Below are positions 1-37,777 of a stretch of 64,000 nucleotides of DNA, piece by piece; the stretch's first letter is position 1, and every line of letters begins with the position of its first letter. The DNA is from Escherichia phage phiWec187. The notes beneath the pieces were generated by a model that searched no databases, was not told the origin of the DNA, and saw only the letters and a program-made list of their open reading frames with translations. The stretch lies in sequence record LC739536.1; one strand, 5' to 3'. The position numbers and the translations under genes are program-made.

Positions 1-1
1 G

Positions 2-1837: not shown

Positions 1838-1848
1838 GGATCTCTAGT

Positions 1849-2094
1849 ATGAGAAAATTTTTAATAGGTATGTTTTGTACATATCCTGATAATAAAGTCA
1901 GTTCTACTAAAGTTTGGAATGCTATTGGTATGATTGTTATGTCCAGTATGTTTATTTATTTGGGAATTGATAAAGAAATTCCTGAATGGATGGGCTGGGC
2001 TTTTGTTTTTATGATCACACCATCCAGACTGATGAAGAATTTAATAGATTTACGTTGGGGCAGATCACCTGCCCCTGATAAGGAGGATAACTAA
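1849..2094 (+). CDS. small hydrophobic protein
   Basis: 81-aa ORF with a hydrophobic core (MIVMSSMFIYLGI, WMGWAFVFMI); stop overlaps the next start (TAATG). Confidence 0.35.
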   Translation: MRKFLIGMFCTYPDNKVSSTKVWNAIGMIVMSSMFIYLGIDKEIPEWMGWAFVFMITPSRLMKNLIDLRWGRSPAPDKEDN

Positions 2095-3581: not shown

Positions 3582-3583
3582 AA

Positions 3584-4213: not shown

Positions 4214-4226
4214 GGAGTTACCCTTA

Positions 4227-5207
4227 ATGGCAAAGCCACAATACTACCCTGACTGGGCGACACAAACAGTAACCCTCCCAGGAACGGGAAACACAAACAA
4301 GATTAGACCAAAAGAAACCATCCGTAATGTTGGTATGGACTTTGGTCAGATTATGACTTGTGAAGAAATGAACTGGATCTTAAACAATATTGGGTCTTGG
4401 ATTCGCTATATGCAAGATGAATTCTTCCCAACATTGCCTACTACATATCTTCCTATAGTCGGTACTAAAATTACAATGGCAGGTGATGCTACAGGTGAAG
4501 TTACATGGAATGGTAATGCTGCTGTAACATTATCTATTCAAGTAGTAGATAACAGTCATAATCACTTATCAGCTAACATTACAGACGCAACATCGAACCA
4601 AGTTGTAGGAAATGTCCTTGTTAAGCGTGATAATGGTGGTGCTATCTATGCAGGTGATATTTACACTTGTGGTACAGGTGCTACAGATCCTGCAACATTA
4701 TTTTTTAGAAACTATAATGGACAAACAGTAGGCAATATGTCTTCTGAACCAGGTGCAGGTGGTCAACTCTATATTTATAGAATAAATCCATCTACTGGAG
4801 GAACATCTTGTGGAGTCCGTTTGTATGATGCAGGTTATGTTTTAATAGACAATCCTCGTTCTAATTCTGGTCAAGATACTGGCAATGGTAATGCTCTTGT
4901 AAGATTAGATTATCTTAACTCAAGACTAAACTCATTGCAAAGTACACTGCAAAATAATATTAACAACGTTAATAGCAACTTGCAAGGCCAAATTAATAAC
5001 ATTAACAATAGAGTTTCTTCTGTTGTGTCTTCTATCCGTCTAGGTACACGTATTAAAGCTGGTGTATCTGAATCTCCTTTCTATGCTGGTCACGTGATCA
5101 CAGGTTGGGGTTTTGGTGATAAGAAAGAACTTCGTGGTGCTTGGTATTGGTCTGCTCCGCTACAATATTACATTAATGGTAGGTGGATAACAGTAACCAA
5201 CGTTTAG
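4227..5207 (+). CDS. tail fibre protein (short fibre)
   Basis: Gly/Thr/Asn-rich beta-type sequence with a C-terminal heptad-like segment (LNSRLNSLQSTLQNNINNVNSNLQGQINNINNRV); RBS AAGGAG upstream. Confidence 0.5.
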   Translation: MAKPQYYPDWATQTVTLPGTGNTNKIRPKETIRNVGMDFGQIMTCEEMNWILNNIGSWIRYMQDEFFPTLPTTYLPIVGTKITMAGDATGEVTWNGNAAVTLSIQVVDNSHNHLSANITDATSNQVVGNVLVKRDNGGAIYAGDIYTCGTGATDPATLFFRNYNGQTVGNMSSEPGAGGQLYIYRINPSTGGTSCGVRLYDAGYVLIDNPRSNSGQDTGNGNALVRLDYLNSRLNSLQSTLQNNINNVNSNLQGQINNINNRVSSVVSSIRLGTRIKAGVSESPFYAGHVITGWGFGDKKELRGAWYWSAPLQYYINGRWITVTNV

Positions 5208-5219
5208 TAAGGAGAACAC

Positions 5220-5771
5220 ATGAAAAAAGATGTTATTTACACTGGCTTTGAACTATATCAACCAGAATTGACAGAAGAAAATGTCATCTATCTTTCAATA
5301 GGTGCTGGTTTTCTTAAAGATAAAGATGGTAATGATTGGTACGAAATTCAGAAATATTTATCCAAAAATTACCCTGATGCCTATTTCTTAACTCTAGATC
5401 ACAACAATGTAGTTGTTGCAGCTACGAAAGATGTTTCTACATATTTTCCCGCTGGTCTTACTGTTCTTGTAACATACAATGTTCCAGATAAAATAGAAGA
5501 AGAAAGCAACCTAGGGTCGTGGAGATATGACAATGGTAAGTTTATTTCTCATAATGGGTTTGCAATAGAAGATGCCAACCTTAAAATGGAAAAAGAATTA
5601 ACTTGGGCCACAAATCAAATATCTGCAATTCAAGATTTAGAGGAATTACAAGGTTTATCTGAAGAACAAAAAGATTGGTTAGGAAAAGTTAAACTCTATC
5701 GTGCAACATTAATTCAAATTAACGTTGAAGATGCACCTAATATAACTTGGCCTACAAGACCTAAGAAATAG
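5220..5771 (+). CDS. tail fibre assembly chaperone (Tfa-like)
   Basis: C-terminal DWLGKVKLYRATLIQINVEDAPNITWPTRP matches the Tfa C-terminal signature (W..YR..L..V......WP..P); directly follows a fibre gene. Confidence 0.6.
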   Translation: MKKDVIYTGFELYQPELTEENVIYLSIGAGFLKDKDGNDWYEIQKYLSKNYPDAYFLTLDHNNVVVAATKDVSTYFPAGLTVLVTYNVPDKIEEESNLGSWRYDNGKFISHNGFAIEDANLKMEKELTWATNQISAIQDLEELQGLSEEQKDWLGKVKLYRATLIQINVEDAPNITWPTRPKK

Positions 5772-5780
5772 GGGCAATGT

Positions 5781-6122
5781 ATGGAGCTAACAGAAGTATG
5801 GGATATCGCTAAAGAGGCGATTATCCCTCTTATTGGCGTAATCTGGGTGGTCTTCAAACAGAAGATAGATGATATGGCAAGTGATTTGGATAAAATGGAA
5901 GACAAATACCGCGAACTAGAAAAGAAGTTGGTGTTTGTTGAATCCACTTATGCTACCAAAGCAGAACTTGCTCAAATGCTTAACCAGATCAACTCTACAT
6001 TAATGGCAAATAATACTGCCTTAGAACAGAAGATTGAAAAAATAATGGATTTAAAAAATGCTCCTGTTCAATTAATGCTAGAGGAGATTACAAAGCGCAC
6101 ACAAAGTAAGGACAAAAATTAA
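5781..6122 (+). CDS. hypothetical protein (N-terminal hydrophobic helix plus coiled coil)
   Basis: 113-aa ORF; IIPLIGVIWVVF hydrophobic stretch then charged helical region; stop overlaps next start. Confidence 0.4.
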   Translation: MELTEVWDIAKEAIIPLIGVIWVVFKQKIDDMASDLDKMEDKYRELEKKLVFVESTYATKAELAQMLNQINSTLMANNTALEQKIEKIMDLKNAPVQLMLEEITKRTQSKDKN

Positions 6123-8536
6123 TGGCGAATTTTCCAACATATCCTGCTACGACACTAGAACAAGGTGTTGATCTGGTTATATTCTCGTCTAACCAGATGC
6201 ATGATGTTATTAATGGGGATGCTACAGCAACTGTAGAAACCGAAACAGGTTTAATACCTACACTGCGTAAAGCACTTGTTGATAACTTCTTCTTTAAGAG
6301 TCCTGTTGCTTGGTCAGCAGGATCAACTGAAACTGTATTTAACCAGTTACGTTATTTTGAAAACGGTATCTTGAGTGGGTACTATTATGCCCCATCTGCC
6401 ACTACTGCGAACCCTGTACCTATGCAGGGCACACCTGTAGGGGACAGTAACTGGACTCTGTACGCTCTTAAAACTGAACAGTTAGCTTCAGATGTGTATC
6501 CTTGGTATTTTAAAGGTGCTACAGGATATGAAACAGAAATCAGTCCTCCTTATATCTTTGATAATGCTATTGTCACCATTAACGGTGTAATTCAGATTCA
6601 AGGTGAAGCATTTACTATCAAAGATAGTAAAATTATTCTGGCAGAACCATTAGGTTTAGATCCGTCTACTGGTCTACCTAACAAATTGTTTGCTTTTATT
6701 GGTAAAACAACAGCTTCTACTTCTTACGTAGAGAAAAACCTTTTGTCATCTACTACTGGTGCAGCAATGGTTGGTCTTCCATCTGGAGGCAACCTGTTAC
6801 AAGCTCAATACTTTGTAACGCCTGAGCAGTTTGGTGCAATTGGTGATGGAGTTACCGATGATACTCAAGCAATTTTAAAAACTATCACTTTCGCTAACAC
6901 GAATAACATTCAAGTACGTGCAGATAAGAATTATAGATTCACAAGCTCAATTGCTATGTCTGGTATTCGTTGGTATGGTGGTACATTCACTGGTAACGGT
7001 GGAACAATGATTTCTACTGTGTCCTGTTGGATGGAAAACGTTCGCTTTGAAAAATGTTATGTTAAGATGTTAGGTGGTGATTGCCGATTCTATCGTAATA
7101 TCTTCTCCAACGCAACATCTACAGCAGCATTCTTAATGCAAGCAATGACAAGTGAAGGTACGTTGGACTTCAGTTACAACGAAATGTATGGTTGTAAATA
7201 TGCGATCCTGCAACAAGGTACTGGAGAAGTAATGACCTACGGGCGTTACTCTAACAACTATATTCACGATATCAAAGGTGATGCTATTGAACTTAACGTA
7301 GTTCAAAAACACTACACTGAAGGTTTGATTATCGAGAATAACCACATTGCTAACGTAGATGCTTCTGGACAAGGTGCAAACTGGGGTATTGGTATTGGTG
7401 TAGCAGGTAGTGGCCCATATGGTGTTGATGTTCCTGATTCACAATATGTACGTAATTTCAGTATCGTTGGGAATAGGGTTTACAATTGCCGTCAATGTTT
7501 ACACGTTGAAATGGGTAAAAACTTCACAATACGTGATAATGAAGTTTATCCTAACACAGCAGTTTCAACAGGTACAGGTTTAACTACTTGTGGTGTTGCA
7601 TTATACGGATGCCAAGATTTTGAAGTTGATGGTTTAACTGGTTATCTGCTCAATGATCCGTCTGTTTCAACACGTATGGTCTTTATTGACTGGGGTGTTA
7701 ACAGTGGAAGATATGCGGGGCCACCAATTAACTTTACAATTAAGAATTTGGATATTCCAGAATCTTCAATTGAGATTGCAACATCTGGATCAGATGCCTG
7801 GGAAAACTCTACAATTGTTAGTAATATCAATTGTAATATTTTTAAATGGCGTGGGCTACCATCTAGCTCTACCTTTAATAATATTCGTTGCCGTAGTATT
7901 GACTTTATTGGTCAACACGGAAGCGGAGAAGGAAGTGGTGGCGGTTTCTATACTCGCAGCCAATTCACGTATATGAAGTGGGTAGGATGTACAGCACTTA
8001 GCGGAGATGAAACAACAGTTTCTTTTGCTAAAATCTACACTGATCGTTGCGATCAGGTTGGAAATAACTTTGGTGTTCCAACTGCTGTTGATGGTACAGG
8101 TCATCGTGGGCCAGTTTTAACTACTATTTCTGAACAATATTTTACAGCTTATGATGAATTCCCAGGTGGGCGTGAATTCCCTACTGGAACAGTTATTCAT
8201 TGTGCAAGCGGTAAAAAACATGTTGTTACAGTAGGTGGTGCTTTCTTTAGTGACAACGAGAAAATAAAAGCAACTGTTACAGGTCAAACCTATCTACAGT
8301 CTAATGCTTTAAACTGGGCTAGTAATGGCTACGCTAAAGCAGCAGGTACTAAGATTGTTATTCCAGGTGCAGGTGCAAATGGCGGCGATCTTGTGACAAC
8401 TATAGCACGTGCTACATATGTGACAAATAGTTTGTACACAATAGATATTGCAGATCCAATTGTAACACCTACAGCAGAGAATACACAAATTAAAGCTCTG
8501 AATCCTGTTACTTTTGTTACTGTCAATAATGCTTAA
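6122..8536 (+). CDS. tailspike with right-handed parallel beta-helix (putative polysaccharide depolymerase)
   Basis: 804 aa; repeated beta-helix-like turns (NNHIANVDASGQGANWGIGIGVAGSG, VGNRVYNCRQCLHVEMGKNFTIRDNEVY); terminator follows. Confidence 0.7.
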   Translation: MANFPTYPATTLEQGVDLVIFSSNQMHDVINGDATATVETETGLIPTLRKALVDNFFFKSPVAWSAGSTETVFNQLRYFENGILSGYYYAPSATTANPVPMQGTPVGDSNWTLYALKTEQLASDVYPWYFKGATGYETEISPPYIFDNAIVTINGVIQIQGEAFTIKDSKIILAEPLGLDPSTGLPNKLFAFIGKTTASTSYVEKNLLSSTTGAAMVGLPSGGNLLQAQYFVTPEQFGAIGDGVTDDTQAILKTITFANTNNIQVRADKNYRFTSSIAMSGIRWYGGTFTGNGGTMISTVSCWMENVRFEKCYVKMLGGDCRFYRNIFSNATSTAAFLMQAMTSEGTLDFSYNEMYGCKYAILQQGTGEVMTYGRYSNNYIHDIKGDAIELNVVQKHYTEGLIIENNHIANVDASGQGANWGIGIGVAGSGPYGVDVPDSQYVRNFSIVGNRVYNCRQCLHVEMGKNFTIRDNEVYPNTAVSTGTGLTTCGVALYGCQDFEVDGLTGYLLNDPSVSTRMVFIDWGVNSGRYAGPPINFTIKNLDIPESSIEIATSGSDAWENSTIVSNINCNIFKWRGLPSSSTFNNIRCRSIDFIGQHGSGEGSGGGFYTRSQFTYMKWVGCTALSGDETTVSFAKIYTDRCDQVGNNFGVPTAVDGTGHRGPVLTTISEQYFTAYDEFPGGREFPTGTVIHCASGKKHVVTVGGAFFSDNEKIKATVTGQTYLQSNALNWASNGYAKAAGTKIVIPGAGANGGDLVTTIARATYVTNSLYTIDIADPIVTPTAENTQIKALNPVTFVTVNNA

Positions 8537-8540
8537 TTAA

Positions 8541-8562
8541 AAAGGGGCGAAAGCCCCTTTAT
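8541..8562 (+). terminator. rho-independent terminator after the tailspike gene
   Basis: aggggc-gaaa-gcccct hairpin followed by TT/A-rich tract. Confidence 0.6.
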
Positions 8563-8577
8563 AAAAGGAGTAGTAAA

Positions 8578-10539
8578 GTGATTTTAACACGTCCAAATAG
8601 TGCCATTGCAGACATGGTAGAGTCTCGCTATAGAAAGCGTAGAAGTTTTGCAAGTGGTTTTACCTTAAGAGATGCTCGTGAAGCATTGCTCTTTGAAACT
8701 GACGGTAACTACTATCAGTGGAAAGGTTCTCTACCTAAAGTTGTACCTGCTAACTCTACTCCTACATCTACTGGAGGGATTTCAGATACAGCTTGGAAAA
8801 ATGTGGGTAATGCAGATGACATTGCTCAAATAGAATCAGAATTAGATGCTATTGAAGCTGAAATTGAAGATCTTAGAGAATCCATTCCAGAGGCTGGTAA
8901 ATCAGCTTACCAGATTGCCGTAGACAATGGTTTCCAAGGTACTGAGACAGAGTGGTTGGCTTCTTTAAAAGGTGATCCAGGTGCTCCATTAAAGCTACTA
9001 GGGACGCTATCTAATACCAACCAATTACCTACAACTGGAAACAATGCAGGGGATGCATGGATTGTAGGCGAGAATATGTATGCTTGGGATGGTACTGCTT
9101 GGAGAAAAGTAAACTCACAGGGGCCAGAAGGTAAATCTGCTTATGAAGTATGGCTTGCAGCAGGAAACGAAGGTACAGAACTAGATTATCTTGCCGCAAT
9201 TAAAGGTGATAAAGGGGAGCCTGGCCCAGAGGGGCCACAAGGTGTGCCAGGTAATAATGCTAATGGTTTTGATTACCAAGGCGCAGCTAATTCCGTTTCA
9301 GATCTTCCTTCTGCATCTCCTGGAAACACATCTCAAGCATGGAGTATTGGTACATATCTATACGTGTCAAACGGTGTAGAATGGATCAATATGGGCGCTA
9401 TAGTGGGGCCAAAAGGAGATAAAGGCGACAAAGGAGATAAGGGTAACACTGGTGATTCAGCTTATCAAGTCTGGTTAAATGCTGGTAACGTTGGTACTAT
9501 TGACGAATATATTGCCTCTCTGAAAGGAGAAAAAGGTGATAAGGGAGACAAGGGTGATCAAGGTGAACAGGGTATACAAGGCTTGACGGGGCCAACTGGT
9601 GCAGGGTTGACCATTATTGACATTCTGACTAGCACTTCTGAACTACCACAAACTGGAGAAGATGGCGATGGTTATCTGATCAATAATGAACTTTGGGTCT
9701 GGTTGCAAGGAGCCACAGAGTGGACAAATGTTGGTCGTTTAGCTGGTACTCCAATCACTGCAAAAGGACACGTTGCGTCTGCAAGTGCACTTCCTCCTAC
9801 AGCCAATTACGGTGATGCTTATCTGACGGAAGATACAGGTCATCTTTACATTTACACCTATGATGAACAAACTCAAACTGCTGAATATGTAGATATGGGT
9901 AGTTTGAAAGGTGATAAGGGTGAAAAAGGTGACGCTGGTACTAACGGTACAGACGGTGCAACTTGGATTGTTAAAACAACAGATCCAATCTCTAGTGATG
10001 GTAAACAAGGTGATTATGCCTTTAATATCTCCACTGGCGAGGTGTTCTTAAAAACATCTGCAACTATCTGGACTTCTCAAGGTACACTACCTAGTATCAC
10101 AGATGCACCTAGTGATGGTAAGACTTATGCTCGTAAAGATGGAGCATGGGAAGAACTCACTAATTCTGTAGATGGTCAAGATATAGTTCCAACAAAAGTA
10201 ACAACTAATTTTATAGAGGTTACAGCATATACTAACAATTCTGTTACAGGGGACTGGACACCTCCAGGAACACATAACATGAATGTGTTGAATCTTACTG
10301 GTAACTCTACTATAAAAGCATGGCCTGGTGTCGAAGATAGCACAAAACCTAAACCATTCTCTGCAATAGTTTATCTTATCCAAGATGCCACTGGAGGTCG
10401 TACTGTTACTTTAGATCCATCTTACAAAGTAATTGGTTCCAGTGATATTAATACAGATCCTAACGGAGTAACAATACTACAACTAACATATTGTGGTGTT
10501 GGCGATTACGTGGATGCTATTGTTGCTAAACGCACATAA
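8578..10539 (+). CDS. tail fibre with collagen-like G-X-Y repeats and phage fibre repeats
   Basis: GDKGEPGPEGPQGVPG, GPKGDKGDKGDKGNTGDS, GEKGDKGDKGDQGEQGIQGLTGPTG; three copies of the SAYQVWL..G..GT..EY.ASLKG unit; GTG start after AAAAGGAG. Confidence 0.75.
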   Translation: MILTRPNSAIADMVESRYRKRRSFASGFTLRDAREALLFETDGNYYQWKGSLPKVVPANSTPTSTGGISDTAWKNVGNADDIAQIESELDAIEAEIEDLRESIPEAGKSAYQIAVDNGFQGTETEWLASLKGDPGAPLKLLGTLSNTNQLPTTGNNAGDAWIVGENMYAWDGTAWRKVNSQGPEGKSAYEVWLAAGNEGTELDYLAAIKGDKGEPGPEGPQGVPGNNANGFDYQGAANSVSDLPSASPGNTSQAWSIGTYLYVSNGVEWINMGAIVGPKGDKGDKGDKGNTGDSAYQVWLNAGNVGTIDEYIASLKGEKGDKGDKGDQGEQGIQGLTGPTGAGLTIIDILTSTSELPQTGEDGDGYLINNELWVWLQGATEWTNVGRLAGTPITAKGHVASASALPPTANYGDAYLTEDTGHLYIYTYDEQTQTAEYVDMGSLKGDKGEKGDAGTNGTDGATWIVKTTDPISSDGKQGDYAFNISTGEVFLKTSATIWTSQGTLPSITDAPSDGKTYARKDGAWEELTNSVDGQDIVPTKVTTNFIEVTAYTNNSVTGDWTPPGTHNMNVLNLTGNSTIKAWPGVEDSTKPKPFSAIVYLIQDATGGRTVTLDPSYKVIGSSDINTDPNGVTILQLTYCGVGDYVDAIVAKRT

Positions 10540-10542
10540 TCA

Positions 10543-10567
10543 AAGCCCCTTCTGGGGCTTATTATTT
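10543..10567 (+). terminator. rho-independent terminator after the collagen-like fibre gene
   Basis: aagcccc-ttct-ggggctt followed by attattt. Confidence 0.6.
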
Positions 10568-10578
10568 AAGGAGATTAA

Positions 10579-13398
10579 ATGTATCCTATTCCTTTATTTA
10601 TGTCAACAACATCAGCTTCAGTAGTAACAGCTACATCTATAACTACTTCCTCTATTGGTATTGCAATAGTTGGTGGTAAAAAACAACTGACATACACAGT
10701 TACACCGGAAGATGGTGCATTATTTGATATAGCTTTTTCATCTTCAGATAATACCAAAATGGTTATAGATAATAGTGGTATGATGGAGTTTGTTGCCGAA
10801 GGTGGTTTTGATGCAATAATGACAGCTAAAAATAATTTAGGTGCTGTCTTAACTGATCAATCTGGTGGTTATGCTTCAGAATTAAGTGTGTACACTGAAA
10901 GTCTATCGGCTATGGATGTAGGCACTACTCAACAGTTGGTTGCTACAATCAGTCCAGAAGGTGCTAAAGACCTTCCAGATATGGTAATTACATACACCAC
11001 AACAGATCCAGAAGTAGCTACTGTAAGCCCTACAGGGTTAATAACTGCTCTTAAAGATGGCGGTTGCCGTATAGGTTGTACTGCAACGTATCAAGGAACA
11101 GTTGTGGCCTCTGATAGGTCTTATTTAGGTGTTAATGCTATTCCTGTTATTTCTAATGTAACAGCCGTGGCAAACAGTTATGGAGACGTTCGTGTTGCTT
11201 GGGATGTAACTGATCCGCTAGACGGTGATACTTATACTGTAGAAGTATTAGATTTAAGTAATAATAGTGTTCAGTGGACTACAACAACCACGAATACTTA
11301 CGCTTACTTTGATATCTCTGACTCTATTCCTCTTTATGGGTTTGCTCCAACATACCTTAAAATTAGCGTTAAGAGCACCAAAGCAGCAGCCGTTATCTTT
11401 AATAACTCAATAGCTACAGATGATTCGTTCATTAAAGAAGTTATTGTCTTTGCTGGACAAGATAACGTAAATGCACACTTTACAGAACTATCTGGTGCAA
11501 ATAAAGCAGCAATGAGTAGCACAACAGCCCGTAATGCATATGCCACGCAACGTGGTTTAGCAAATGCTGAAGTTCTTCCGTTAAATACAGCTTCTGGATC
11601 ATCAGCAGCAGATAAATATGCAGATGATAAAGCCGGAACAGGAACACCAGACAACTACTGGTATGATCTGGATAACACAGCAGATGGGCCATGCTTAACT
11701 AACTTTATCACTAAAGTCACACCTTATGCAAGTAAGGTTAAAGCCATTATTTGGGGACAAGGTGAAAATGATGCTGTATCAGCATCTTCGACTGTTGCAG
11801 GTAGGTACAGTAACACTACACGTTACCATGATGCTACGATAGCCATCTTTGATAAGATGCGTACAATAGTTCCTGCTTCTCAAGCAAAAATTGTTTGGCA
11901 GATCCTAGGACGTTCTTATTTATATGGTGTAGAAGTTAATGGTGTGGATTGGCAGAAGTACAGAAATGTACAAAGAACCATCTCTACAGCACGTGATGAT
12001 GTTATCATTGGTTCTTGGGTAGATGGTGCTGAACGTTACAGTGGTTATGTTTATGAAGAAGGTATTGATGGTCGTATCCATTATATTTCTTCTGTATACC
12101 AAACAGCAGCTACAAAACTTGCTAAATCAGCAGCAGACGGTACAGACTTAACATCAACGTCACCTGTTTGGGTTGATATGGCTGTTCCAACTGGAGCAAC
12201 AGCTACTTCCCAATCTAATCAAGATACAATTTTAGCATGGGATGCTCAAGGCTATAGTAAACACTACTTCCGTAATATTAACGTCTTAACCGCATCTGTA
12301 TTAACTGAACAAACGCTTAATACGAACAGTTATACGTTTACCTATGCAGATCAAGTAGCACAATATGGCTTTGCAGCAGGAACTACTATATTTGATGTTG
12401 CATATTATGACGAAGCAAATGATGTGTTATCTCCTTTAGTACGTTTTAATGTTAACGTTACAGCAGGAACCGTAGAAGATAAACCTGTAGTGATGGATTA
12501 TGATTTAACACAAGAAACTCTTCCATCAGATGTTAAGGTTAATGGTGGGAACTCTTTTGCTCGTACTTCTGGAGATACACTTGTAGCCACTAACACCTTG
12601 GTTGCTCCGTTGGAGTATATTGGTACTACCCCTGTAGGTAGACGTGTAACAGCTAACACAGCTACACAAATTTTTGTCAACAACGCCTTAACAAGTGCAA
12701 GCCCGTGGGTAAAGACCAACTTAACTGTTGCAGCTTCATCTGATAACTCTCCGGTTGGAACTACTGCTAATGTATTCAAATTAACTCCGACTACAACCTC
12801 TGGTAGTCATATCTTAACTGCAACATATACTAACGCGTACAACATATCTGCCGGACGTAACTGGTCTGCCTCTGTTTTCTTGAAAGCGAACGGGATTACT
12901 AAGGCCAAACTAAGATTAAAAGCAGGAACTGAAGTTAATGAGGGTACTTTTGATTTAGCAGCAGGTACATTCACAGGAAGTGAAGCTAATATTATATCTA
13001 TGGGCAACGGTTGGTATCGTGCTATTCTGCATAAAACAGGGATAGCCAAACAGTCCTCCATAAGTTTTGAAATAATTGCCTTGGATGCAACTGGTGCGGA
13101 GATTTTCGCTGGAGATGGTACTAGTAACCTTGCAGTTTGGTTGCCACAGCTTGAAGGTGCTTCTACAGGAGAAACATCAAAAGCTGGATCGCCTTATGTC
13201 TGCACATATCCTGGAAATTTAGGAGGAGTATCCTTCACTATACCAAGGAACGGACATACTGGTGTGGATGTTTACTATTCCAACGGAGACGTTGTTCGTG
13301 ACGTATTCTCTGGTACGGCATCTACTTGGACAATAAACTACTCCAGCTTGTACGATTGGGGATCAGTCTTTATTACAGGTTTGAAATATTACGACTAA
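10579..13398 (+). CDS. large tail fibre/receptor-binding protein with Ig-like (Big_2-type) domain and putative esterase-like domain
   Basis: 939 aa; Big_2-like segment (TQQLVATISPEGAKDLPDMVITYTTTDPEVATVSPTGLITALKDGGCRIGCTATY); IIWGQGENDA resembles SGNH/sialate-O-acetylesterase-type motifs (weak); terminator follows. Confidence 0.55.
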   Translation: MYPIPLFMSTTSASVVTATSITTSSIGIAIVGGKKQLTYTVTPEDGALFDIAFSSSDNTKMVIDNSGMMEFVAEGGFDAIMTAKNNLGAVLTDQSGGYASELSVYTESLSAMDVGTTQQLVATISPEGAKDLPDMVITYTTTDPEVATVSPTGLITALKDGGCRIGCTATYQGTVVASDRSYLGVNAIPVISNVTAVANSYGDVRVAWDVTDPLDGDTYTVEVLDLSNNSVQWTTTTTNTYAYFDISDSIPLYGFAPTYLKISVKSTKAAAVIFNNSIATDDSFIKEVIVFAGQDNVNAHFTELSGANKAAMSSTTARNAYATQRGLANAEVLPLNTASGSSAADKYADDKAGTGTPDNYWYDLDNTADGPCLTNFITKVTPYASKVKAIIWGQGENDAVSASSTVAGRYSNTTRYHDATIAIFDKMRTIVPASQAKIVWQILGRSYLYGVEVNGVDWQKYRNVQRTISTARDDVIIGSWVDGAERYSGYVYEEGIDGRIHYISSVYQTAATKLAKSAADGTDLTSTSPVWVDMAVPTGATATSQSNQDTILAWDAQGYSKHYFRNINVLTASVLTEQTLNTNSYTFTYADQVAQYGFAAGTTIFDVAYYDEANDVLSPLVRFNVNVTAGTVEDKPVVMDYDLTQETLPSDVKVNGGNSFARTSGDTLVATNTLVAPLEYIGTTPVGRRVTANTATQIFVNNALTSASPWVKTNLTVAASSDNSPVGTTANVFKLTPTTTSGSHILTATYTNAYNISAGRNWSASVFLKANGITKAKLRLKAGTEVNEGTFDLAAGTFTGSEANIISMGNGWYRAILHKTGIAKQSSISFEIIALDATGAEIFAGDGTSNLAVWLPQLEGASTGETSKAGSPYVCTYPGNLGGVSFTIPRNGHTGVDVYYSNGDVVRDVFSGTASTWTINYSSLYDWGSVFITGLKYYD

Positions 13399-13403
13399 TA
13401 AAA

Positions 13404-13430
13404 AAGGAGCCATTAGGCTCCTTTTCTTTT
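13404..13430. terminator. bidirectional terminator between convergent genes
   Basis: aaggagcc-atta-ggctcctt followed by ttctttt; lies between a plus-strand gene end (13398) and a minus-strand gene end (13434). Confidence 0.6.
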
Positions 13431-13433
13431 ATC

Positions 13434-13865
13434 TTAATCAGTGAAAATTACGCTCACATCTTCTTTAGAGAAGAGTTTATGATCTTCACCTTTTGTCTCA
13501 AGAGTTTCATACAGGTTAAGAAGTTCTGAAACATCTTTCTCTACCAGTTTCTTCAATGTTGCAATTTTCTGTTTGCGATTCTTAATACGTTCAGCTACAA
13601 CCTTACGTTGGTATCCGGCAGTACGATAACCTGAGAAAGTTACACCAGTAAGACTTGCAGTTACAGGATCGTAGTGACGTTCAATCTGAAATTTATTAAA
13701 AGGTACAGCGTCATCACGAATAATCTTACCGCCATTACTTACTTGACGAAGACCAGTAACTTGCTCAAGTCGTGCCATAGAAATCTTTGGAGACAGACCA
13801 GAATCCAGGTTCATACCGTTGTTAATCAGTGCTTTCAGGGTGATTTTGCTGTTCAGTGTACTCAT
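13434..13865 (-). CDS. hypothetical protein
   Basis: 143-aa ORF co-oriented with and just downstream of the methyltransferase; listed start overlaps the MTase 3' end, true start may be the internal Met at 13814. Confidence 0.4.
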   Translation of the reverse strand: MSTLNSKITLKALINNGMNLDSGLSPKISMARLEQVTGLRQVSNGGKIIRDDAVPFNKFQIERHYDPVTASLTGVTFSGYRTAGYQRKVVAERIKNRKQKIATLKKLVEKDVSELLNLYETLETKGEDHKLFSKEDVSVIFTD

Positions 13866-14553
13866 TTAGTCGTTCCTCCGCTTGCTTAAAAATATTTACA
13901 TCGGCTTCACAGCCTAAGTATTCTCTACCTGTTAAAAGTGCCGCAACTTGTGTTGTTGCACTTCCAGAGAAGAAGTCTAAGACTACATCTCCTTCGTTGG
14001 TGTGTATATTAATAAGGTCACAAAACAAAGTCAAGTGTTTTTGTGTTGGATGAAAACGATCTGCTCCTTGATAGATAGGATACTCGAACACACCCTTATG
14101 GTAGGAAGCATTGAAGGTTGGCTTCGAACCTTTAACACAAACAATAGCCATCTCTTTAGCGTTACTAAGGTAGTTAACACCACTGTTGATGGGTACAGGG
14201 TTTGTTTTAATCCATTCAATAGTACGGAACATACGAAAACCAAGCGGTTCAAGGATTTCACGTAGCTCCTGGATCTTCCAGATATCATACCAAACTATAC
14301 AAGTACCACCTTTTCTAAGCACCCTGTAGGCTTCTTTGAATACTTCTTTAAAGTAAGGAATATCTACAACATCCCAATCACCAAAGTTGTAAGATACACG
14401 GAATCTATCCGTATCTTTTCCAGTCGGCTCTCCAGATTGAAAATTTGTGTCACGAGAAATAGCATATGGTGGGTCAGTAAGAATCAAATCTACACTATTG
14501 CTTTCGAGGGTTTGCAGGTAGTTTAACGCGGTGTTGTTTACAAATTCGCTCAT
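13822..14553 (-). CDS. DNA methyltransferase (N6-adenine or N4-cytosine, beta class)
   Basis: DPPY motif (LILTDPPYAI) preceding an AdoMet-binding-like FFSGSATT segment, the order typical of beta-class amino-MTases. Confidence 0.8.
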   Translation of the reverse strand: MSEFVNNTALNYLQTLESNSVDLILTDPPYAISRDTNFQSGEPTGKDTDRFRVSYNFGDWDVVDIPYFKEVFKEAYRVLRKGGTCIVWYDIWKIQELREILEPLGFRMFRTIEWIKTNPVPINSGVNYLSNAKEMAIVCVKGSKPTFNASYHKGVFEYPIYQGADRFHPTQKHLTLFCDLINIHTNEGDVVLDFFSGSATTQVAALLTGREYLGCEADVNIFKQAEERLNEYTEQQNHPESTD

Positions 14554-14571
14554 TATATCTCCTTCAAAGAA

Positions 14572-14591
14572 AAGGAGCCGTTAGGCTCCTT
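14572..14591 (-). terminator. hairpin/terminator upstream of the MTase gene, near-identical to the one at 13404
   Basis: aaggagcc-gtta-ggctcctt; same stem as 13404-13423. Confidence 0.5.
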
Positions 14592-14613
14592 ATATTTACA
14601 CAATATTTAACTA

Positions 14614-15561
14614 TTAGAAACAGTGCAGGAAGTTTCGACCATACTGCAAACCAATAGGAGCAAATGGGATATCATCATCGAAATCTTGAACAACAGGTTC
14701 TGGCTCTTTCGGTGCTGGCTCTTTCTTCTCTACTTTTTTAGTTTCTTTCTTAACTTCTTGTACCGGGGTAGACATTCCACGGATAGCAGCAGCTACTTTA
14801 TCAGACAAAGCAAGAACTTCACGAGCAGCTTCAATAATCTCTTCTGCCGTTACAGTCTTACCTGTATGATCACGACAAGCGTTAAGAATTGCGTGTCCAA
14901 CTGAAGCACCAAGATCATAGTCAGTCACATCAACGCCACGATCTTTAGCAATTTCTGCTTTCAGAGTAACAGTTGCAGATTGTACCACACCAGCCAAGTC
15001 GAAAGCATCACCTTTCACACCAGCACGTAGAAGCTCCAGAGCGCCGTTCACAGCGTGTCCTGTTTCAATCCCCACGGTATCACGTTTTTTGTAGTTAGGC
15101 TTGTTACCGTCATTATTAGATGGCTTATTTCCACCTTTTGAAGAGGATTGCGCTTGCTGAACACCTTCTGTTGAAAGAATAGTGATTTTACCTTTAGAGG
15201 AATTGTAGTATGTTTTGCCATTCCATTCAGAAGGTTTAACATCCATAGTTAGTTCTACACCTTTTTCGATAGTAACCCACTTGTCACCATCTTTAACTTG
15301 CAGGTTTTCATGTTCTGGATGCAGTTTAACTTCACCTAGGCTAACCCAAACACCTTTATCATCAGCACTAGCACCTTTCTCTTTAATAAGCAGAGATGCT
15401 TTGTGAGTTGATTCAATTTTCTTATCTGGCTGACCTGCAACCTTAATATAAGAGACTTTCATTTCATCAAACTTATCCAGTTTGACATATTCAACGATAC
15501 CTTCAGCCCAGAATGCTTCTTTTTTAGTACGACGGTCGATTTCAGAATTAATTACTGGCAT
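14614..15561 (-). CDS. SSB-like protein carrying an E. coli SSB-type acidic tip motif
   Basis: 315 aa; DFDDDIPF (identical to the bacterial SSB C-terminal tip) lies 15 residues before the stop; Gly/Asn/Lys-rich linker upstream; OB-fold not verifiable by eye. Confidence 0.45.
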   Translation of the reverse strand: MPVINSEIDRRTKKEAFWAEGIVEYVKLDKFDEMKVSYIKVAGQPDKKIESTHKASLLIKEKGASADDKGVWVSLGEVKLHPEHENLQVKDGDKWVTIEKGVELTMDVKPSEWNGKTYYNSSKGKITILSTEGVQQAQSSSKGGNKPSNNDGNKPNYKKRDTVGIETGHAVNGALELLRAGVKGDAFDLAGVVQSATVTLKAEIAKDRGVDVTDYDLGASVGHAILNACRDHTGKTVTAEEIIEAAREVLALSDKVAAAIRGMSTPVQEVKKETKKVEKKEPAPKEPEPVVQDFDDDIPFAPIGLQYGRNFLHCF

Positions 15562-15577
15562 AAATTCTCCTCTATAA

Positions 15578-15976
15578 TTACATTACTTTAACACAAAACT
15601 CTCGTAAAAGAGTAGCGTCAGTTTCTTCCAACAGGTATTTACCAAGACCAATACCAAATCCTATTTCACCACTTTCGAAATGGAGGATTTGTATCTTTTC
15701 TCCACCAAGGTTAATTACTTTTGCTTTTCCAGGATTATCCAAAACATCTCGTATTGTATCCTGTAGTAGCATTAGTTCACGTTTTGTGATAGTGGTTTCA
15801 GATATCTCTTTGTTTTCTACTCTCACTGTTAAACGGTTGTATCCACCAAAGAGACATAGTATTTGAATAAAAAAGGTATTATCTTGAGGTTCAACATCTT
15901 TTTTAGTTAACTCAAGACGATTAGTTTCTCTACTATAGAACGTCTCGACTAAGATTTTAGAACGATTATCTGTCAT
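15578..15976 (-). CDS. hypothetical protein
   Basis: 132-aa ORF in the replication block. Confidence 0.4.
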   Translation of the reverse strand: MTDNRSKILVETFYSRETNRLELTKKDVEPQDNTFFIQILCLFGGYNRLTVRVENKEISETTITKRELMLLQDTIRDVLDNPGKAKVINLGGEKIQILHFESGEIGFGIGLGKYLLEETDATLLREFCVKVM

Positions 15977-16019
15977 TCAAGTCCTCATAATAACACATAA
16001 TTATAATGTTTGTCAACAC

Positions 16020-16613
16020 TTAAATTTTAAATTCTTCACTGTTAAATGAATCCAGTGTACGTACTTCTGGTTCTTTGGGAATGAAAACGTCTTTTACAAA
16101 GCGGAACATAGGGAAACGTTCTGCCATTTTACGGACGTGTGCTTCTTTACCTGTGTATCGGTGATTAATAGTACAAATATTAGTTTTCAGTGCAAATTCA
16201 AAATCTGGATGATATACATAATTTTGACCATCCCAGTAACACAAGCAAATAGCTACATCAAAGTTCCATACGATTTCACTGCGTACACCTTCTTCCATAA
16301 TCATAAAGTTAAACTTAAGATCTTTATAGTATGCTTCAAATACCCATTTCAAATGCGGTAGTTCGGCATAAGTGTGTTCTGTTTGCTTAGTAAGTTGTTT
16401 AACATTACGTGCACCAACACCCAACATCAAAAATTTCTCTACTAATACGATTGTATTGTGGTTAGGCATACGCAAGTAAATATCAATATCTTGCGCAGGT
16501 TTCTCTAATCGCCAATCACGTACAGCGCCGCCAGCTACAATTGCAAACGGATCTACCAGTTGGCACATACGTAATACTTCTAAAGCTCGTACTTTTTGAT
16601 CTTCAATATTCAT
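16020..16613 (-). CDS. minimal nucleotidyltransferase (CCA-adding/poly(A) polymerase head-domain-like)
   Basis: AGGAVRDWRL followed by DIDIY, matching the GGxVRD...DxD signature of the Pol-beta-type tRNA nucleotidyltransferase head domain; only 197 aa. Confidence 0.5.
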   Translation of the reverse strand: MNIEDQKVRALEVLRMCQLVDPFAIVAGGAVRDWRLEKPAQDIDIYLRMPNHNTIVLVEKFLMLGVGARNVKQLTKQTEHTYAELPHLKWVFEAYYKDLKFNFMIMEEGVRSEIVWNFDVAICLCYWDGQNYVYHPDFEFALKTNICTINHRYTGKEAHVRKMAERFPMFRFVKDVFIPKEPEVRTLDSFNSEEFKI

Positions 16614-16750
16614 ATTTTCTCCTATCTCTTATGGTCTTTGCGTTATTCTAGATGTTCAAACATCTAATTATGAAATGGTTTAAAAGTGCGGAACAACCTT
16701 GGCAATTACAGATTGTTCCACATAAAAACTCCTTTAAAATCAAAGATTTG

Positions 16751-19700
16751 TCAATGACAACTAGCCCATGAGTTACCAACATCGTAACCAGCAGTGAGAG
16801 GTACATTAAGATTGTAATACTCACCAGCTTTATTAACAGCGATAGATGCTAATTCTCCAGCACGACTGTAGGCTGTAAACCAACCACCTTTCGGAGATTC
16901 ATGTACGTTAGCCCAAATCTTGCCAGTACGTTTCTCTTCCTCTTCTTTCCAGGTATTAACTTTATCCAAACATTCTTTATCAATTTTCTTTTGTTCTTCT
17001 GGATCATCAACTTGAGTCCAACCTAAAGATTCTTTAGAGAACCATTTAAAATGCACCAGATCACGAGTTACTTCAAGCTGTGCTTCATCGTGATATGCAA
17101 TCATTTGTTGAACGAATGACTTATTTTTCCAGTCATCAACAAAAAAGTCAACAGCTAATCCTTCTTCTTCGATAAGATCGTCGTAGATAACCATTGCTCT
17201 TTTTGCACAAATAACACCACCACTCTGGAACAGAGAGTTAAGTATTGCGTGTGCAGATCGTGTAGGTACTTTTCTACCATCAATACCGAGAATGTATTTC
17301 TTACCTGTTTTAACCCAAAAATCATGCAGACGTTCTTTAAGAAGCGCAAGAGGTTTTGCAGCTTCCCAGAAAGCATCGTATACAAGCTGTCCTGTATACA
17401 TATCACTACCTATAGTTTTTGCTACTTTTGCAGCTTGAGCGCCGTACGTGCAGTTACCTGTCAACGTGATAAAACCATTCTGACGCATAACAAAAGATTC
17501 ATTCTTGGTTGAGATACAGAATACATCTGTTACTCGTGAAAAAGCTCTTGTCAACCTCTGTCCTGAAATAGTTTGTCCGTTATTGATTGCCAACGTTAAC
17601 ATGCCATCTTTTTGAACAGAACCATACGCAATATTACCTGTCATATTGATAGCCAAAGAAACAGCGTCGCTAATCTTACCTTTCTTTTGACGGATAACAA
17701 GACTGCCGTTTGGACGCTTATGACCATCTGCCATCCAGAATGCCTCTAAGAATGCTTCCAACACAGCTTGACCTTGATTAGCAATTAATGTAGACCAGTC
17801 CACTTCGTGCTTATTTTGACCCACTTCAACGCCACATTTAGTCAAAAATTCCCTAAACTGACTCTTATTAGGACGTAATGAATGCATCGTTCCAGATACA
17901 TACTCGTCAAATGTGAAGATATCTCCCACAGCCTCACGTGCTTCTTCTAAGAATTTTTTCTCATCTTGATCTACCGTGACTGTAATACCCATTACTTTAT
18001 TTCTGGCTTTGCCAGACCACTTATAGTAGCCATCCGAAAGAAGCCAGCCTAAGAAACGACCTTCTTCCACTGTTAGAGTAGACACCACACCAGATCGCCC
18101 TGCTGCAATTATGTTTGACTCCGAGTTTAAATCCTCTGTAGATCTACGCTCCACTTGCATATACTTAACATTGTTACCATCTGATCGCATAGTTTTTCTC
18201 TGTGCGTTAATCCACATATGATCGTTAGTAACTTCTACTTTGAACCACTTGTTACCGAGAGAGACAACTTCTGCATCGTTATAGTCCCACAGCTTAAGAA
18301 TAGGGGTATATTCGTAAAGAGCGGTGTGAGTATTATAAGATAAAACTTCATCCCCTACAAAAAGATCTTTACGTTTCTTCCAACCCGTTCTTGTTAACAC
18401 TTCCGTATTATCTACAGGTACACAACCGTATTTAACGCTCTTAGCAGGACCACGTTCAAACTTACGTCCAATAATATCAGTAATATGTTTTGCCATCATA
18501 GTATGCACATCGTTTGGTTTTTCTAACAGAAGTGCATTACAGTAAGCATGATCAGGATTATCATATCTCCACGTATAATGCGACTCAATCTTCGCCTCTA
18601 ATGAATCAAAGTCATAACCAATCTGGAAGTATTTAGGAACCTCTACACCAAATAAGTTACGCATTTCATATCCGTACAGAGATGTTACACGTGGGATATT
18701 TGCTACTAACCTATGTTTCATACGAGATGTAGCTGCATCACACGTTGCAGCAGGAGTTGGTATACGACCATCAGCCCTTACTGCTGCCAGATAACCTTTA
18801 TCGTAATCCTCTTCTTCTTCCCAATCAGCACCACCCCCTAGAATAGAGTTCCTACGGTGTTTATACGTAAGATACTGCACAACCTGCGTAGCATAAGGAA
18901 ACTTTTCACCTAGTGCTTCCAAGTTAGGACAAATATCTTTCTCTTGCCCTTTTGTAAAGGAAGGGTTAGTAAGCACTTTAACACCACGACCTTTAGCTTT
19001 AGCAATACGATCTCTTAGTTTCCATTCCAAAGTTTCTGGTGTGCACTCCAGATGATCACATCTGTCCTGGCAGAAATTAGATGCTAATGTTTGATCAACA
19101 TAGTCACGAATGGCTTTCTCCATTTGTGCTTCATCTTTCTTAATCTTAGTGCCAGATTTAAGAGTGATATCTTTATCTTTATATTCAGATGGACTCCAAC
19201 CTAAACCAACTAACCAATTTTTAATATGTGTTGTGTCGTCTAAAGTAGCAGGTACTGTAGGATCACAAATAGGTTCTTCTGCTGGAATAGGTAGTTTAAA
19301 CTCTTTACCTAATGCAAATAACCACCAACCATCTTCTTTTTGTACAAGTTCACCAGAATGTTTCTCTGCAAACTTTATCATGTTACTTGAAGGTTCACCA
19401 TTCTTTTTAAACTGTAGTTTAGGTGGAATGAATGATTTCAAATAACCTTTAGTAGCAGGTTTAGGAGGTAGCACAGGTTCTGCCTCTAAACGACATGCTT
19501 CCATTCGAGCATCCAGATCACGAATATTATCTTCTGCTTGTTTCATGTTGAAAGCAAAGCCACGGTGCTCTTGACGTGTAATAATATCAGCTACACGTTG
19601 TTCTAAGTTAAATGGTTCAGACCACTTATTATAATCACCCCACTCTTCCATCAAATAACGGAACACTGCGGTGTTAGCTTTGTTATCGTAAATACAGTAA

Positions 19701-20299
19701 TACAGCATATCTGCTGCAAATGTTCTAAATCTTTCAGTTTCAGGGATGTTTTTTCTGAAATCAATTTTAACATCCCCTCCAGCTTTCTTAGATAACTCTG
19801 CCAGACTATGACCACCGAAGCGATCAGGGTTTAGTGTCTTACTTAAGATCATAGTATCACAAATTTCAATGTTACTATTACCCCAAGTATTGTACTTAAT
19901 ACTGTAGTTGAGTTTAAAAAATAATTTAATTGCCAGTAAGTCGAAGTTAATGATGTTGTGTCCAACTACTTTGGTAATTTTATAGTTTGAATTACCTTTA
20001 AATTTACCTGTTCCGTTTACAAAATCAGGAAAATCTTTAAGAGGGAAATGGGTATATTCTAAATGCTCATATTCCTCCAGTCGGTATTCATACTTTCCGT
20101 CAGTCTCAACATACGGACGACCATCGAAAAGATATTTATCACCATCATGGAAAGCAATAATCTCTCCAGTATCATGACTTTCGCACACAATACAGTGCAT
20201 TGCAAAACTATCTTTTAAACGATATGGACTTGCCAAGTAATCTACACTTTCGTCATTAAGCAAGTTGTTACTTTCAATGTCGAAAGTAAAAGCTCCCAT
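16751..20299 (-). CDS. family A DNA polymerase with N-terminal 3'-5' exonuclease, interrupted by an intein
   Basis: Motif B region RGPAKSVKYG...CTYGAQAAK split by a 324-aa insert; motif C AYHDEAQLE; N-terminal exonuclease-like FDIESN. Confidence 0.85.
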   Translation of the reverse strand: MGAFTFDIESNNLLNDESVDYLASPYRLKDSFAMHCIVCESHDTGEIIAFHDGDKYLFDGRPYVETDGKYEYRLEEYEHLEYTHFPLKDFPDFVNGTGKFKGNSNYKITKVVGHNIINFDLLAIKLFFKLNYSIKYNTWGNSNIEICDTMILSKTLNPDRFGGHSLAELSKKAGGDVKIDFRKNIPETERFRTFAADMLYYCIYDNKANTAVFRYLMEEWGDYNKWSEPFNLEQRVADIITRQEHRGFAFNMKQAEDNIRDLDARMEACRLEAEPVLPPKPATKGYLKSFIPPKLQFKKNGEPSSNMIKFAEKHSGELVQKEDGWWLFALGKEFKLPIPAEEPICDPTVPATLDDTTHIKNWLVGLGWSPSEYKDKDITLKSGTKIKKDEAQMEKAIRDYVDQTLASNFCQDRCDHLECTPETLEWKLRDRIAKAKGRGVKVLTNPSFTKGQEKDICPNLEALGEKFPYATQVVQYLTYKHRRNSILGGGADWEEEEDYDKGYLAAVRADGRIPTPAATCDAATSRMKHRLVANIPRVTSLYGYEMRNLFGVEVPKYFQIGYDFDSLEAKIESHYTWRYDNPDHAYCNALLLEKPNDVHTMMAKHITDIIGRKFERGPAKSVKYGCVPVDNTEVLTRTGWKKRKDLFVGDEVLSYNTHTALYEYTPILKLWDYNDAEVVSLGNKWFKVEVTNDHMWINAQRKTMRSDGNNVKYMQVERRSTEDLNSESNIIAAGRSGVVSTLTVEEGRFLGWLLSDGYYKWSGKARNKVMGITVTVDQDEKKFLEEAREAVGDIFTFDEYVSGTMHSLRPNKSQFREFLTKCGVEVGQNKHEVDWSTLIANQGQAVLEAFLEAFWMADGHKRPNGSLVIRQKKGKISDAVSLAINMTGNIAYGSVQKDGMLTLAINNGQTISGQRLTRAFSRVTDVFCISTKNESFVMRQNGFITLTGNCTYGAQAAKVAKTIGSDMYTGQLVYDAFWEAAKPLALLKERLHDFWVKTGKKYILGIDGRKVPTRSAHAILNSLFQSGGVICAKRAMVIYDDLIEEEGLAVDFFVDDWKNKSFVQQMIAYHDEAQLEVTRDLVHFKWFSKESLGWTQVDDPEEQKKIDKECLDKVNTWKEEEEKRTGKIWANVHESPKGGWFTAYSRAGELASIAVNKAGEYYNLNVPLTAGYDVGNSWASCH
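17453..18424 (-). mobile_element. intein with LAGLIDADG-type homing endonuclease inside DNA polymerase motif B
   Basis: Begins CVPVDNTEVL (intein block A), ends ...LTGN with +1 Cys; internal GWLLSDGYY and LEAFWMADGH resemble the two LAGLIDADG helices; removal restores K-x3-YG-x2-YG. Confidence 0.75.
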
Positions 20300-37747: not shown

Positions 37748-37777
37748 ATAAATAAAGGAGGCTTTCGCCTCCTTTTA
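37746..37777 (-). terminator. rho-independent terminator after the ATPase gene
   Basis: aaaggaggc-tttc-gcctccttt hairpin with U-run on the minus strand. Confidence 0.55.

Follow-up and report, generated by a model that had tools for sequence, protein, structure and literature searches.

Bidirectional intrinsic terminators situated between convergent operons consist of a tetraloop on a GC-rich stem of 8–10 bp, which is preceded by an A-tract and followed by a T-tract. In T4-type phages, terminator stem-loops are also known as parts of PeSLs, composite promoter-plus-terminator motifs that are present in many copies in hyperplastic regions (PMC2839356, PMC4122927); there, repeated stem-loops surround non-essential genes and mosaic boundaries fall at the stem-loops. 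Phage morons are self-contained accessory transcription units located between conserved genes. Orphan methyltransferases of the beta class, represented by DpnA/M1.HpyAVI (5hek; PMC5173035), are proteins of ∼240 amino acids in which DPPY precedes FxGxG and which have no adjoining cognate restriction enzyme; M1.HpyAVI is a dimer methylating GAGG-type sites (PMC5173035). The phage locus described here resembles each of these systems in part. Its features are ordinary and largely annotated already in near-identical published genomes; no structural difference from the terminators of convergent operons was found, the sole oddity being that two neighboring terminators have the same stem word.

The locus lies within the window, that is, the whole stretch of 64,000 nucleotides analyzed (Escherichia phage phiWec187, LC739536.1). 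The last gene of the plus-strand tail block encodes a tail protein or lateral tail fiber (10579..13398; an ORF of 939 aa matching Pfam Big_2, annotated as a tail protein in relatives). The minus-strand replication block has an SSB-like gene as its last conserved member (gp156, 14614..15561; 315 aa, containing DFDDDIPF; phrog_4477; annotated as single-stranded DNA-binding protein in several relatives), and beyond it lie gp157, a nucleotidyltransferase, and the DNA polymerase. Just as the original prediction had it, a cassette is placed between the tail and the replication genes, with the content expected, namely a minus-strand gene for a DPPY methyltransferase (13822..14553; 243 aa) and a hypothetical gene, gp154 (13434..13865, minus strand; 143 aa), the two ORFs overlapping by 44 nt. 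The cassette is bracketed by two 20-mer hairpins, T1 at 13404–13423 (AAGGAGCC-atta-GGCTCCTT) and T2 at 14572–14591 (AAGGAGCC-gtta-GGCTCCTT), which are indeed one loop base apart. Megablast of the region 12400–15700 matched 90 phage records, the best of which (vB_Eco_J-01, alia, Antha, Paula, and PaulScherrer) were 98–99% identical over the full length; all belong to the phi92-like genus Justusliebigvirus (subfamily Stephanstirmvirinae). When up to two mismatches were allowed, the 20-mer matched three sites in the 64-kb window versus none in dinucleotide-preserving shuffles of it, the third site (two mismatches) being a separate terminator at 37755 (AAGGAGGC-tttc-GCCTCCTT). The exact hairpin, taken literally, did not recur at many other terminators across the genome; it was found only at the same two sites, in the window and in the complete, concatenated genome of alia (147,009 bp) alike.

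T1 and T2 were the top two terminator-like sites in positions 1–20000, and both form the minimum-free-energy or centroid structure of their own RNAs (stems of 8–10 bp with 5 GC pairs; −13.3 to −19.1 kcal/mol; z −2.7 to −6.3 versus shuffles). T1 in its full extent (13402..13425; AAAAGGAGCC-atta-GGCTCCTTTT) is a 10-bp stem between an A-tract and a T-tract, so that a hairpin plus U-run is read on both strands, with the tail UUUUCUUUUAU after the stem on the plus strand and UUUUUUAUUA on the minus strand. Its fold energy is −15.7 kcal/mol for the plus-strand RNA (z −5.2) and −19.1 kcal/mol for the minus-strand RNA (z −6.3). The tail gene and gp154 converge on T1, their stop codons being 35 nt apart and lying 3–8 nt from the hairpin; in stem, tetraloop, A-tract, and T-tract, T1 matches the bidirectional terminators of convergent operons. 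The centroid fold of T2 (14572..14591, minus strand; −13.3 kcal/mol) is the hairpin AAGGAGCC-uaac-GGCUCCUU, followed by UUCUUUG. Since its tail is UUUUCUUUG on the minus strand and weak on the plus strand (AUAUUUAC), T2 appears to be a one-directional version, reading on the minus strand. It is located 22 nt after the SSB stop codon and 18 nt before the methyltransferase ATG. The record of phage Paula annotates both hairpins as terminators, T1 on both strands, and together with the terminator-like calls this bears out the initial view of the hairpins as terminators. Assignment to a known RNA family was rejected: Rfam gave nothing above threshold at the hairpins, and the sub-threshold sRNA matches that did appear were due to the terminator hairpin itself.

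Across eight phi92-like genomes neither stem changes; T2 is constant throughout, while the T1 loop varies. Further afield, hairpins with other stems occupy the same positions (L003, L004, L011, L012, L137–L141, and L146). The orthologous stems of T1 are GGAGCC, GGGAGCC, GGGAACC, and GGGAGCCTC or GGGAACCTC, a compensatory change from G-C to A-T included, and those of T2 are GGAGCC, GGGGC, or GGGGCT. A terminator is found at the T2 position in all four diverged lineages that carry the module, and the order terminator, ribosome-binding site, ATG is common to all four as well. In the window, the Shine–Dalgarno sequence of the methyltransferase as read from the sequence, AAGGAG (14559..14564, minus strand), lies 7 nt after T2 and 5 nt before the ATG, where the phi92 record annotates an AGGAG ribosome-binding site. 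Among promoter-like sites with at least nine of 12 matches, none fell between T2 and the ATG, and none was listed on the minus strand in 14554–14640. The best promoter-like site in positions 1–20000 is a sigma-70-like TTGACA-18-TATTAT upstream of gp157 (15987..16016, minus strand; 11/12 matches with a TG extension; a consensus match only); the transcript that would end at, or read through, T2 probably starts here.

The reading that we prefer, with a probability of roughly 75%, is that both hairpins are Rho-independent terminators from a small repertoire of the phage, that T2 is probably an attenuator, and that their near-identity reflects the reuse of a resident word. The repertoire in question would be the A-tract/GC-stem/tetraloop/T-tract hairpins used throughout the phage genome. 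T1 would stop the plus-strand tail operon and, on the opposite strand, the transcript of the methyltransferase and gp154; T2 would end the minus-strand gp157–SSB transcript. Because the 18 nt between T2 and the ATG hold a ribosome-binding site and no promoter, we infer that the methyltransferase and the translationally overlapping gp154 are expressed by read-through, most likely at a reduced level set by T2 as an attenuator. What the comparisons establish are the structures, positions, conservation, and distribution; termination, attenuation, and the role of gp154 are predictions. A phage-specific promoter type, invisible to a sigma-70 scan, could also drive the methyltransferase. The unit is like a moron in that it is accessory, absent from sister genera, and has a terminator (T1) downstream; it differs in having no promoter between T2 and the methyltransferase, which makes it appear dependent on read-through from the upstream operon. 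A gp154-like gene in a related sequence (L146) has the full promoter-gene-terminator layout of a moron.

The likeness between T1 and T2 is nothing out of the ordinary here: other terminator families of the genome reappear at unlinked sites and are as similar or more so. Among the 18 strong alia terminators are the stem families GGGGC (four members), GCCCC (four), CCCGC (three), GGGCGC (two), and GGAGCC (two); the family AAAGGGGC has four copies, two of which are identical 20-mers 13 kb apart, AAGCCCC likewise four, and AAACCCGC three. When 34-nt windows around the 14 alia terminators with 4-nt loops were compared pairwise (91 pairs), the likeness of T1 and T2 (26/34) ranked seventh, six unlinked pairs being more alike. 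From the tally of 18, the chance that two random alia terminators share a family is ∼0.11, and neighbors share a family in ∼2 of 17 pairs versus ∼1.9 expected by chance; the statistical weight of the identical T1 and T2 stems is weak. A scan of IMG/VR for AAGGAGCC-N4-GGCTCCTT returned at least 120 unrelated contigs, and among the matches listed, 108 of 121 instances had a T-rich tail, with loops enriched for GNRA and UUCG tetraloops. The T-rich tails in unrelated phages therefore suggest that the AAGGAGCC word is a generic terminator solution.

The comparison of synteny that had been proposed as a check was run, and it showed the cassette to be variably present. It is absent from the SSB–tail junction of Phapecoctavirus ESCO13, Klebsiella phage phi1_175008, and a Seunavirus-like Salmonella phage (L011). 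In each of the three, the SSB and tail genes are directly convergent and separated by one hairpin, with a GGGAACC stem in ESCO13, a GGGAGCC stem in phi1_175008, and the sequence AAGGAGCC-gaaa-GGCTCCTT (also written AAGGAGCC-gaaa-GGCTCCTTTTCTTTTTA) in L011. In Mt1B1_P17, the junction contains an HNH endonuclease gene, after which comes AAGGAGCC-aaat-GGCTCCTT. The SSB–tail gap is a recombination-prone site, which in relatives is empty or occupied by an HNH endonuclease or by a gp154-like gene alone. In tblastn searches, the methyltransferase was found with at least 99% identity in 55 phi92-like records, the next best matches (35%) being in Streptococcus and Staphylococcus phages; gp154 had the same 55-record distribution, and the SSB-like gene was found in 345 records. 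The composition of the module gave no sign of a recent foreign origin: its GC content (0.38–0.42) equals that of the flanks.

Rare homologues of gp154 with 56–66% identity were detected in the contigs L137, L138, L139/L140, and L141. All have the layout SSB, hairpin, methyltransferase, overlapping gp154, hairpin, tail gene, and their proteins are 78–83% (methyltransferase), 55–60% (gp154), and 53–72% (SSB) identical to those of the window. At the T2 and T1 positions, respectively, L137 has AAGGGGC-ttcg-GCCCCTT and AAAGGGAGCCTC-ttgc-GAGGTTCCCTTT, and L139/L140/L141 have GGGGCT-gcttgt-AGCCCC and AAAAGGGAGCC-aa-TGGCTCCCTTTT. The T2 of L138 is identical to that of the window, U-tract and ribosome-binding site included, and at its T1 position stands AAAGGGAACCTC-gaaa-GAGGCTCCCTTT. 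In three of the four diverged lineages carrying the module, then, the two hairpins are unlike each other. Since the site of the module is shared by these lineages, a preserved insertion scar does not appear to explain why T1 and T2 are nearly identical; on the genomes compared, this near-identity is particular to the phi92 group. The suggestion that the locus is either a reused terminator or the footprint of an inserted module is accordingly half borne out. Its reused terminators and its accessory module stand; the near-identity as the mark of an insertion event lacks support, given the unlike hairpins of three lineages, the unlinked recurrence of other terminator families, and the generic nature of the word. 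The likeness of T1 and T2 would be the reuse of a terminator word long resident at the junction, with neither a mechanistic requirement nor an insertion scar behind it.

The conserved unit is the pair of genes, not the hairpins, because an unrelated phage-like contig (L147) also has the overlapping methyltransferase–gp154 pair (gp154 40% identical), placed between other genes and other stem-loops. The methyltransferase, a predicted beta-class DNA N6-adenine/N4-cytosine enzyme (phrog_67), matches Pfam N6_N4_Mtase (PF01555) over residues 21–227 of 243 (E 1.9e-30; 106.9 bits, the cut-off being 26.7); DPPY (motif IV) is N-terminal, at residues 27–30, and DFFSGSATT (motif I) is C-terminal, near residue 192. 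Its closest solved structure is M1.HpyAVI of H. pylori, deposited as “DpnA” (5hek; E 1.1e-28, end-to-end alignment). It is like this type in size, in motif order, and in having no adjoining cognate restriction enzyme, and differs from it by its low identity (the best tblastn match outside the genus being ∼35%) and by always being followed by an overlapping winged-helix-like gene, a partner not described for the solved homologue. Methyl transfer by the phage enzyme is a prediction, to which the GAGG-type specificity of M1.HpyAVI is not transferred. The BASEL study found phi92-like phages to be very sensitive to the restriction systems tested (PMC8594841), and for this reason the methyltransferase is presumably not a broad anti-restriction device.

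For the partner protein, gp154, the prediction is a winged-helix-like domain at the N-terminus and a long helix after it. AlphaFold modeled the protein with confidence (pLDDT 94.9), and a Foldseek search of the PDB gave nothing significant. The family comprises 28 cluster representatives among 1.84 billion proteins. The protein may plausibly serve the methyltransferase as a DNA-binding partner or as a regulator. In L144–L146, a gp154-like gene stands by itself; it lacks a methyltransferase partner and has a promoter of its own, TTGACG-17-TAATAT. Seven gp154-like stretches are also found in a protein of 1,452 aa (P0018), for which Pfam gives the Flg_new repeat only and no functional lead.

An alternative account of the near-identity, tentative yet deserving to be kept in mind, is that a single ancestral AAGGAGCC terminator at the SSB–tail junction was duplicated or recombined at insertion, which would make T1 and T2 paralogous flanking copies. 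L011, which has no insert, carries just such a hairpin, and in L144–L146 the gp154-like gene lies between two inverted copies of the L011-type ∼29-mer, which read AAGG(G)AGCC-gaaa-GGCTCCTTTTCTTTT and are one indel apart. In the window, T1 on the plus strand and T2 on the minus strand have the stem plus the tail GGCTCCTTTTCTTT in common. Because the GGAGCC stem is used at no other site in the 147-kb alia genome, local copying of a resident terminator is plausible, and because this stem is seen again at the junction in five or more diverged lineages (L011, Mt1B1_P17, L138, L146, and the phi92 group), descent by local duplication is a closer fit than a random choice among the repertoire. Against this, at the shared module site of L137 and L139/L140/L141 the upstream hairpin is of the GGGGC type and the downstream one of the GGGAGCC type, and the hairpins of L138 are unlike as well. 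The similarity of T1 and T2 is confined to the hairpin and U-tract, both of which are functionally constrained; it is exceeded by the six unlinked alia pairs, and unrelated phages often have this word as a terminator. On its upstream side, moreover, T2 is tied to the remnant of an HNH gene, with which it may have arrived. Local duplication of the terminator is possible, and the data fit it as they fit repeated replacement by recombination.

The apparent HNH remnant is the 22-nt spacer between T2 and the SSB gene (14592..14613, minus strand; TAG TTA AAT ATT GTG TAA ATAT). Homologous HNH genes directly follow the SSB gene in Mt1B1_P17, L141, and L138, the copy in L138 being degenerate. When the spacer was anchored at T2, 16 of 20 positions matched the last codons of the L138 HNH ORF, whose end is followed by the identical T2, U-tract, and ribosome-binding site. 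This match indicates that an HNH gene was once present in the window and has since been deleted. At the other end of the cassette, identity within the phi92 group is 97–99% on the cassette side of T1 versus ∼70%, or unalignable, in the tail gene, the allele of which switches exactly at T1.

It is doubtful, though worth stating, that the AAGGAGCC terminator serves phi92-like and related phages as the short homology by which accessory genes (gp154-like, methyltransferase, HNH) and tail-fiber alleles are swapped in and out of the SSB–tail site, the methyltransferase and its partner forming an undescribed two-protein modification unit. That the hairpins are recombination substrates in the manner of the PeSL cassettes of T4-type phages, mediating shuffling, excision, and mini-circles between co-infecting phages, we regard as unlikely. 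Besides the PeSL precedent (PMC2839356, PMC4122927), the change of tail-gene allele at T1 would agree with it, as would the comparison of L145 with L146, in which the upstream gene differs and identity resumes at the hairpin. The T1 arms of L137 and L138 resemble reciprocal chimeras (GGGAGCCTC/GAGGTTCCC and GGGAACCTC/GAGGCTCCC), with one non-Watson–Crick pair each, as a crossover in the loop would give, and the alia terminators at 74760 and 100540 share 27 nt, a non-functional tail included. The likeness to PeSLs extends to repeated terminator stem-loops around non-essential genes and may extend to mosaic boundaries, some of which fall at the stem-loops. However, PeSLs join a sigma-70 promoter to the stem-loop and form clusters of many copies, whereas no promoter adjoins T1 or T2 in the window and the word occurs just twice in the window and just twice in alia. 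Mosaic breakpoints at gene boundaries are expected from selection alone, 20 bp is a very short homology, and the HNH deletion has its boundary 20 nt away from T2, outside the hairpin. If the swap did take place in this way, it would represent a PeSL-like mechanism of mobile regulatory cassettes outside the T4-type phages.

A translational switch at T2, in which its 3′ arm (CUCCUU) would alternately pair with the Shine–Dalgarno sequence and link termination to translation of the methyltransferase, is highly improbable. The idea comes from a repeated hexamer, AAGGAG, which forms the 5′ arm of T2 and, 7 nt after the stem, the ribosome-binding site. The centroid fold, though, contains just the T2 terminator and leaves the ribosome-binding site unpaired, and the T2 stems of L137 and L139 (GGGGC types) cannot pair with their own ribosome-binding sites (GAGGAG or AAGGAGG); the alternative pairing, being neither the predicted fold nor conserved in L137 or L139, was rejected. 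Finally, that the hairpins are the ends (inverted repeats or a target-site duplication) of a transposon-like element carrying the methyltransferase is hardly credible and was dismissed, for although two near-identical 20-mers flank the 1.15-kb unit, it encodes only the methyltransferase and the 143-aa winged-helix-like protein and has no gene for a transposase, an integrase, or a recombinase, both repeats are palindromic terminators in their own right, complete with U-tract, the module is flanked by different hairpins in L137–L141 and L147, and its GC content equals that of the flanks.

On the preferred reading, in which T1 and T2 are reused terminators, this striking pair of repeats would be routine transcription punctuation in a well-sampled phage genus, with no need to pursue it as a new RNA device or mobile element. 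Of more interest for experiments would be the uncharacterized winged-helix-like protein that invariably accompanies the methyltransferase. In Stephanstirmvirinae-like phages, the SSB–tail junction is documented by these comparisons as a hot spot of insertion and recombination beside the host-range (tail-fiber) genes, knowledge of which may be useful for engineering therapeutic phages or for interpreting mosaic ones.

The methyltransferase gene and the overlapping gp154 recur together outside this group of phages. At 2804-3914 of L147, an unrelated phage-like contig, the same pair lies between the gene for a 337-aa protein and NT5C/ThyX genes, and the stem-loops around it differ from those in the window; thus, the two genes travel as a unit. 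At the junction between the SSB and tail genes of L146, a gp154-like gene is found without a methyltransferase (3380-3950), as is likewise the case in L144 and L145. The L146 gene is preceded by its own sigma-70-like promoter (TTGACG-17-TAATAT), and the hairpin AAGG(G)AGCC-gaaa-GGCTCCTTTTCTTTT borders it on both sides, the two copies being inverted relative to each other; this combination of a private promoter and flanking hairpins corresponds to the textbook layout of a moron. Similarity to gp154 (residues 38-104) was also observed in seven stretches of a 1452-aa protein, P0018, which additionally contains a Listeria-Bacteroides repeat (Flg_new).

The spacer between the stop codon of the SSB-like gene and the terminator hairpin T2 (22 nt; 14592-14613) resembles the final codons and the stop codon of an HNH endonuclease gene, with 16 of 20 positions agreeing with those in the relative L138. 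In L138, L141, and phage Mt1B1_P17, an HNH endonuclease gene is located at this very spot. Judged from this similarity, the phi92 group seems to have once had the HNH gene and to have since lost it, with only the stub remaining. The adjacent 3′ end of the SSB-like gene (14614-14661) encodes the SSB-type acidic motif DFDDDIPF, which is not the C-terminal end of gp156 because a further 15 residues, APIGLQYGRNFLHCF, come after it. The same extension is also present in Mt1B1_P17, in one Seunavirus-like phage, and in one rV5-like phage. The SSB of the Phapecoctavirus ESCO13, of Klebsiella phage phi1_175008, and of the loci L137-L139 and L146 (in L146 alone, the motif reads DFDDEIPF) ends directly after IPF, without an extension. 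Three GenBank records titled "Campylobacter phage A150/A145/A110a" (MG065639, MG065645, and MG065689) are close to the phi92-like coliphages considered here; amino acid identity is 98.1% for SSB of A150 and 99.3% for gp154 of A150, A145, and A110a. The records probably represent mislabeled or contaminant phages.

Further differences within the genus concern the DNA polymerase and its neighbor. The polymerase ORF of the window (16751-20299, minus strand) encodes 1182 aa and is thereby longer than its counterparts in phages Paula and alia (859 aa) and in phi92 (1104 aa); Pfam recognized its DNA_pol_A domain in part only. The extra internal block looks like an intein, since it starts with Cys, contains the LAGLIDADG-like motifs LLSDGYY and FWMADGH, and ends with "...TGN" followed by Cys. 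Because an ORF of ∼198 aa between the nucleotidyltransferase and polymerase genes of alia (37790-38386) and ESCO8 is absent from the window (16614-16750), it is a further small presence/absence difference inside the genus. The genus has another DNA methyltransferase gene besides the one at the SSB-tail locus; its product is annotated as a cytosine methyltransferase, and in alia it is found at 103463-104452, far from that locus and outside the region equivalent to the window.

Bracketing by one repeated terminator is not confined to the window. Two identical hairpins, AAGGAGCC-gaaa-GGCTCCTT, lie 3 kb apart on L081, an unrelated IMG/VR contig (889-908 and 3905-3924), and enclose a block of minus-strand ORFs, which demonstrates that this arrangement recurs elsewhere. 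In L137 and L138, the downstream hairpins (6394-6432, arms GGGAGCCTC/GAGGTTCCC, with one G-U pair; and 1861-1900, arms GGGAACCTC/GAGGCTCCC, with one A-C mismatch) are complementary chimeras, which is the outcome to be expected if two stem variants had crossed over within the loop. Across the complete alia genome (L133-L135), the terminators group into sequence families, and members of one family at distant sites may share 20-27 nt without a single difference, with the match reaching past the stem (for example, 74760 and 100540, or 112577 and 125664). Such identity hints at genome-wide copying or homogenization of the terminators of this phage.
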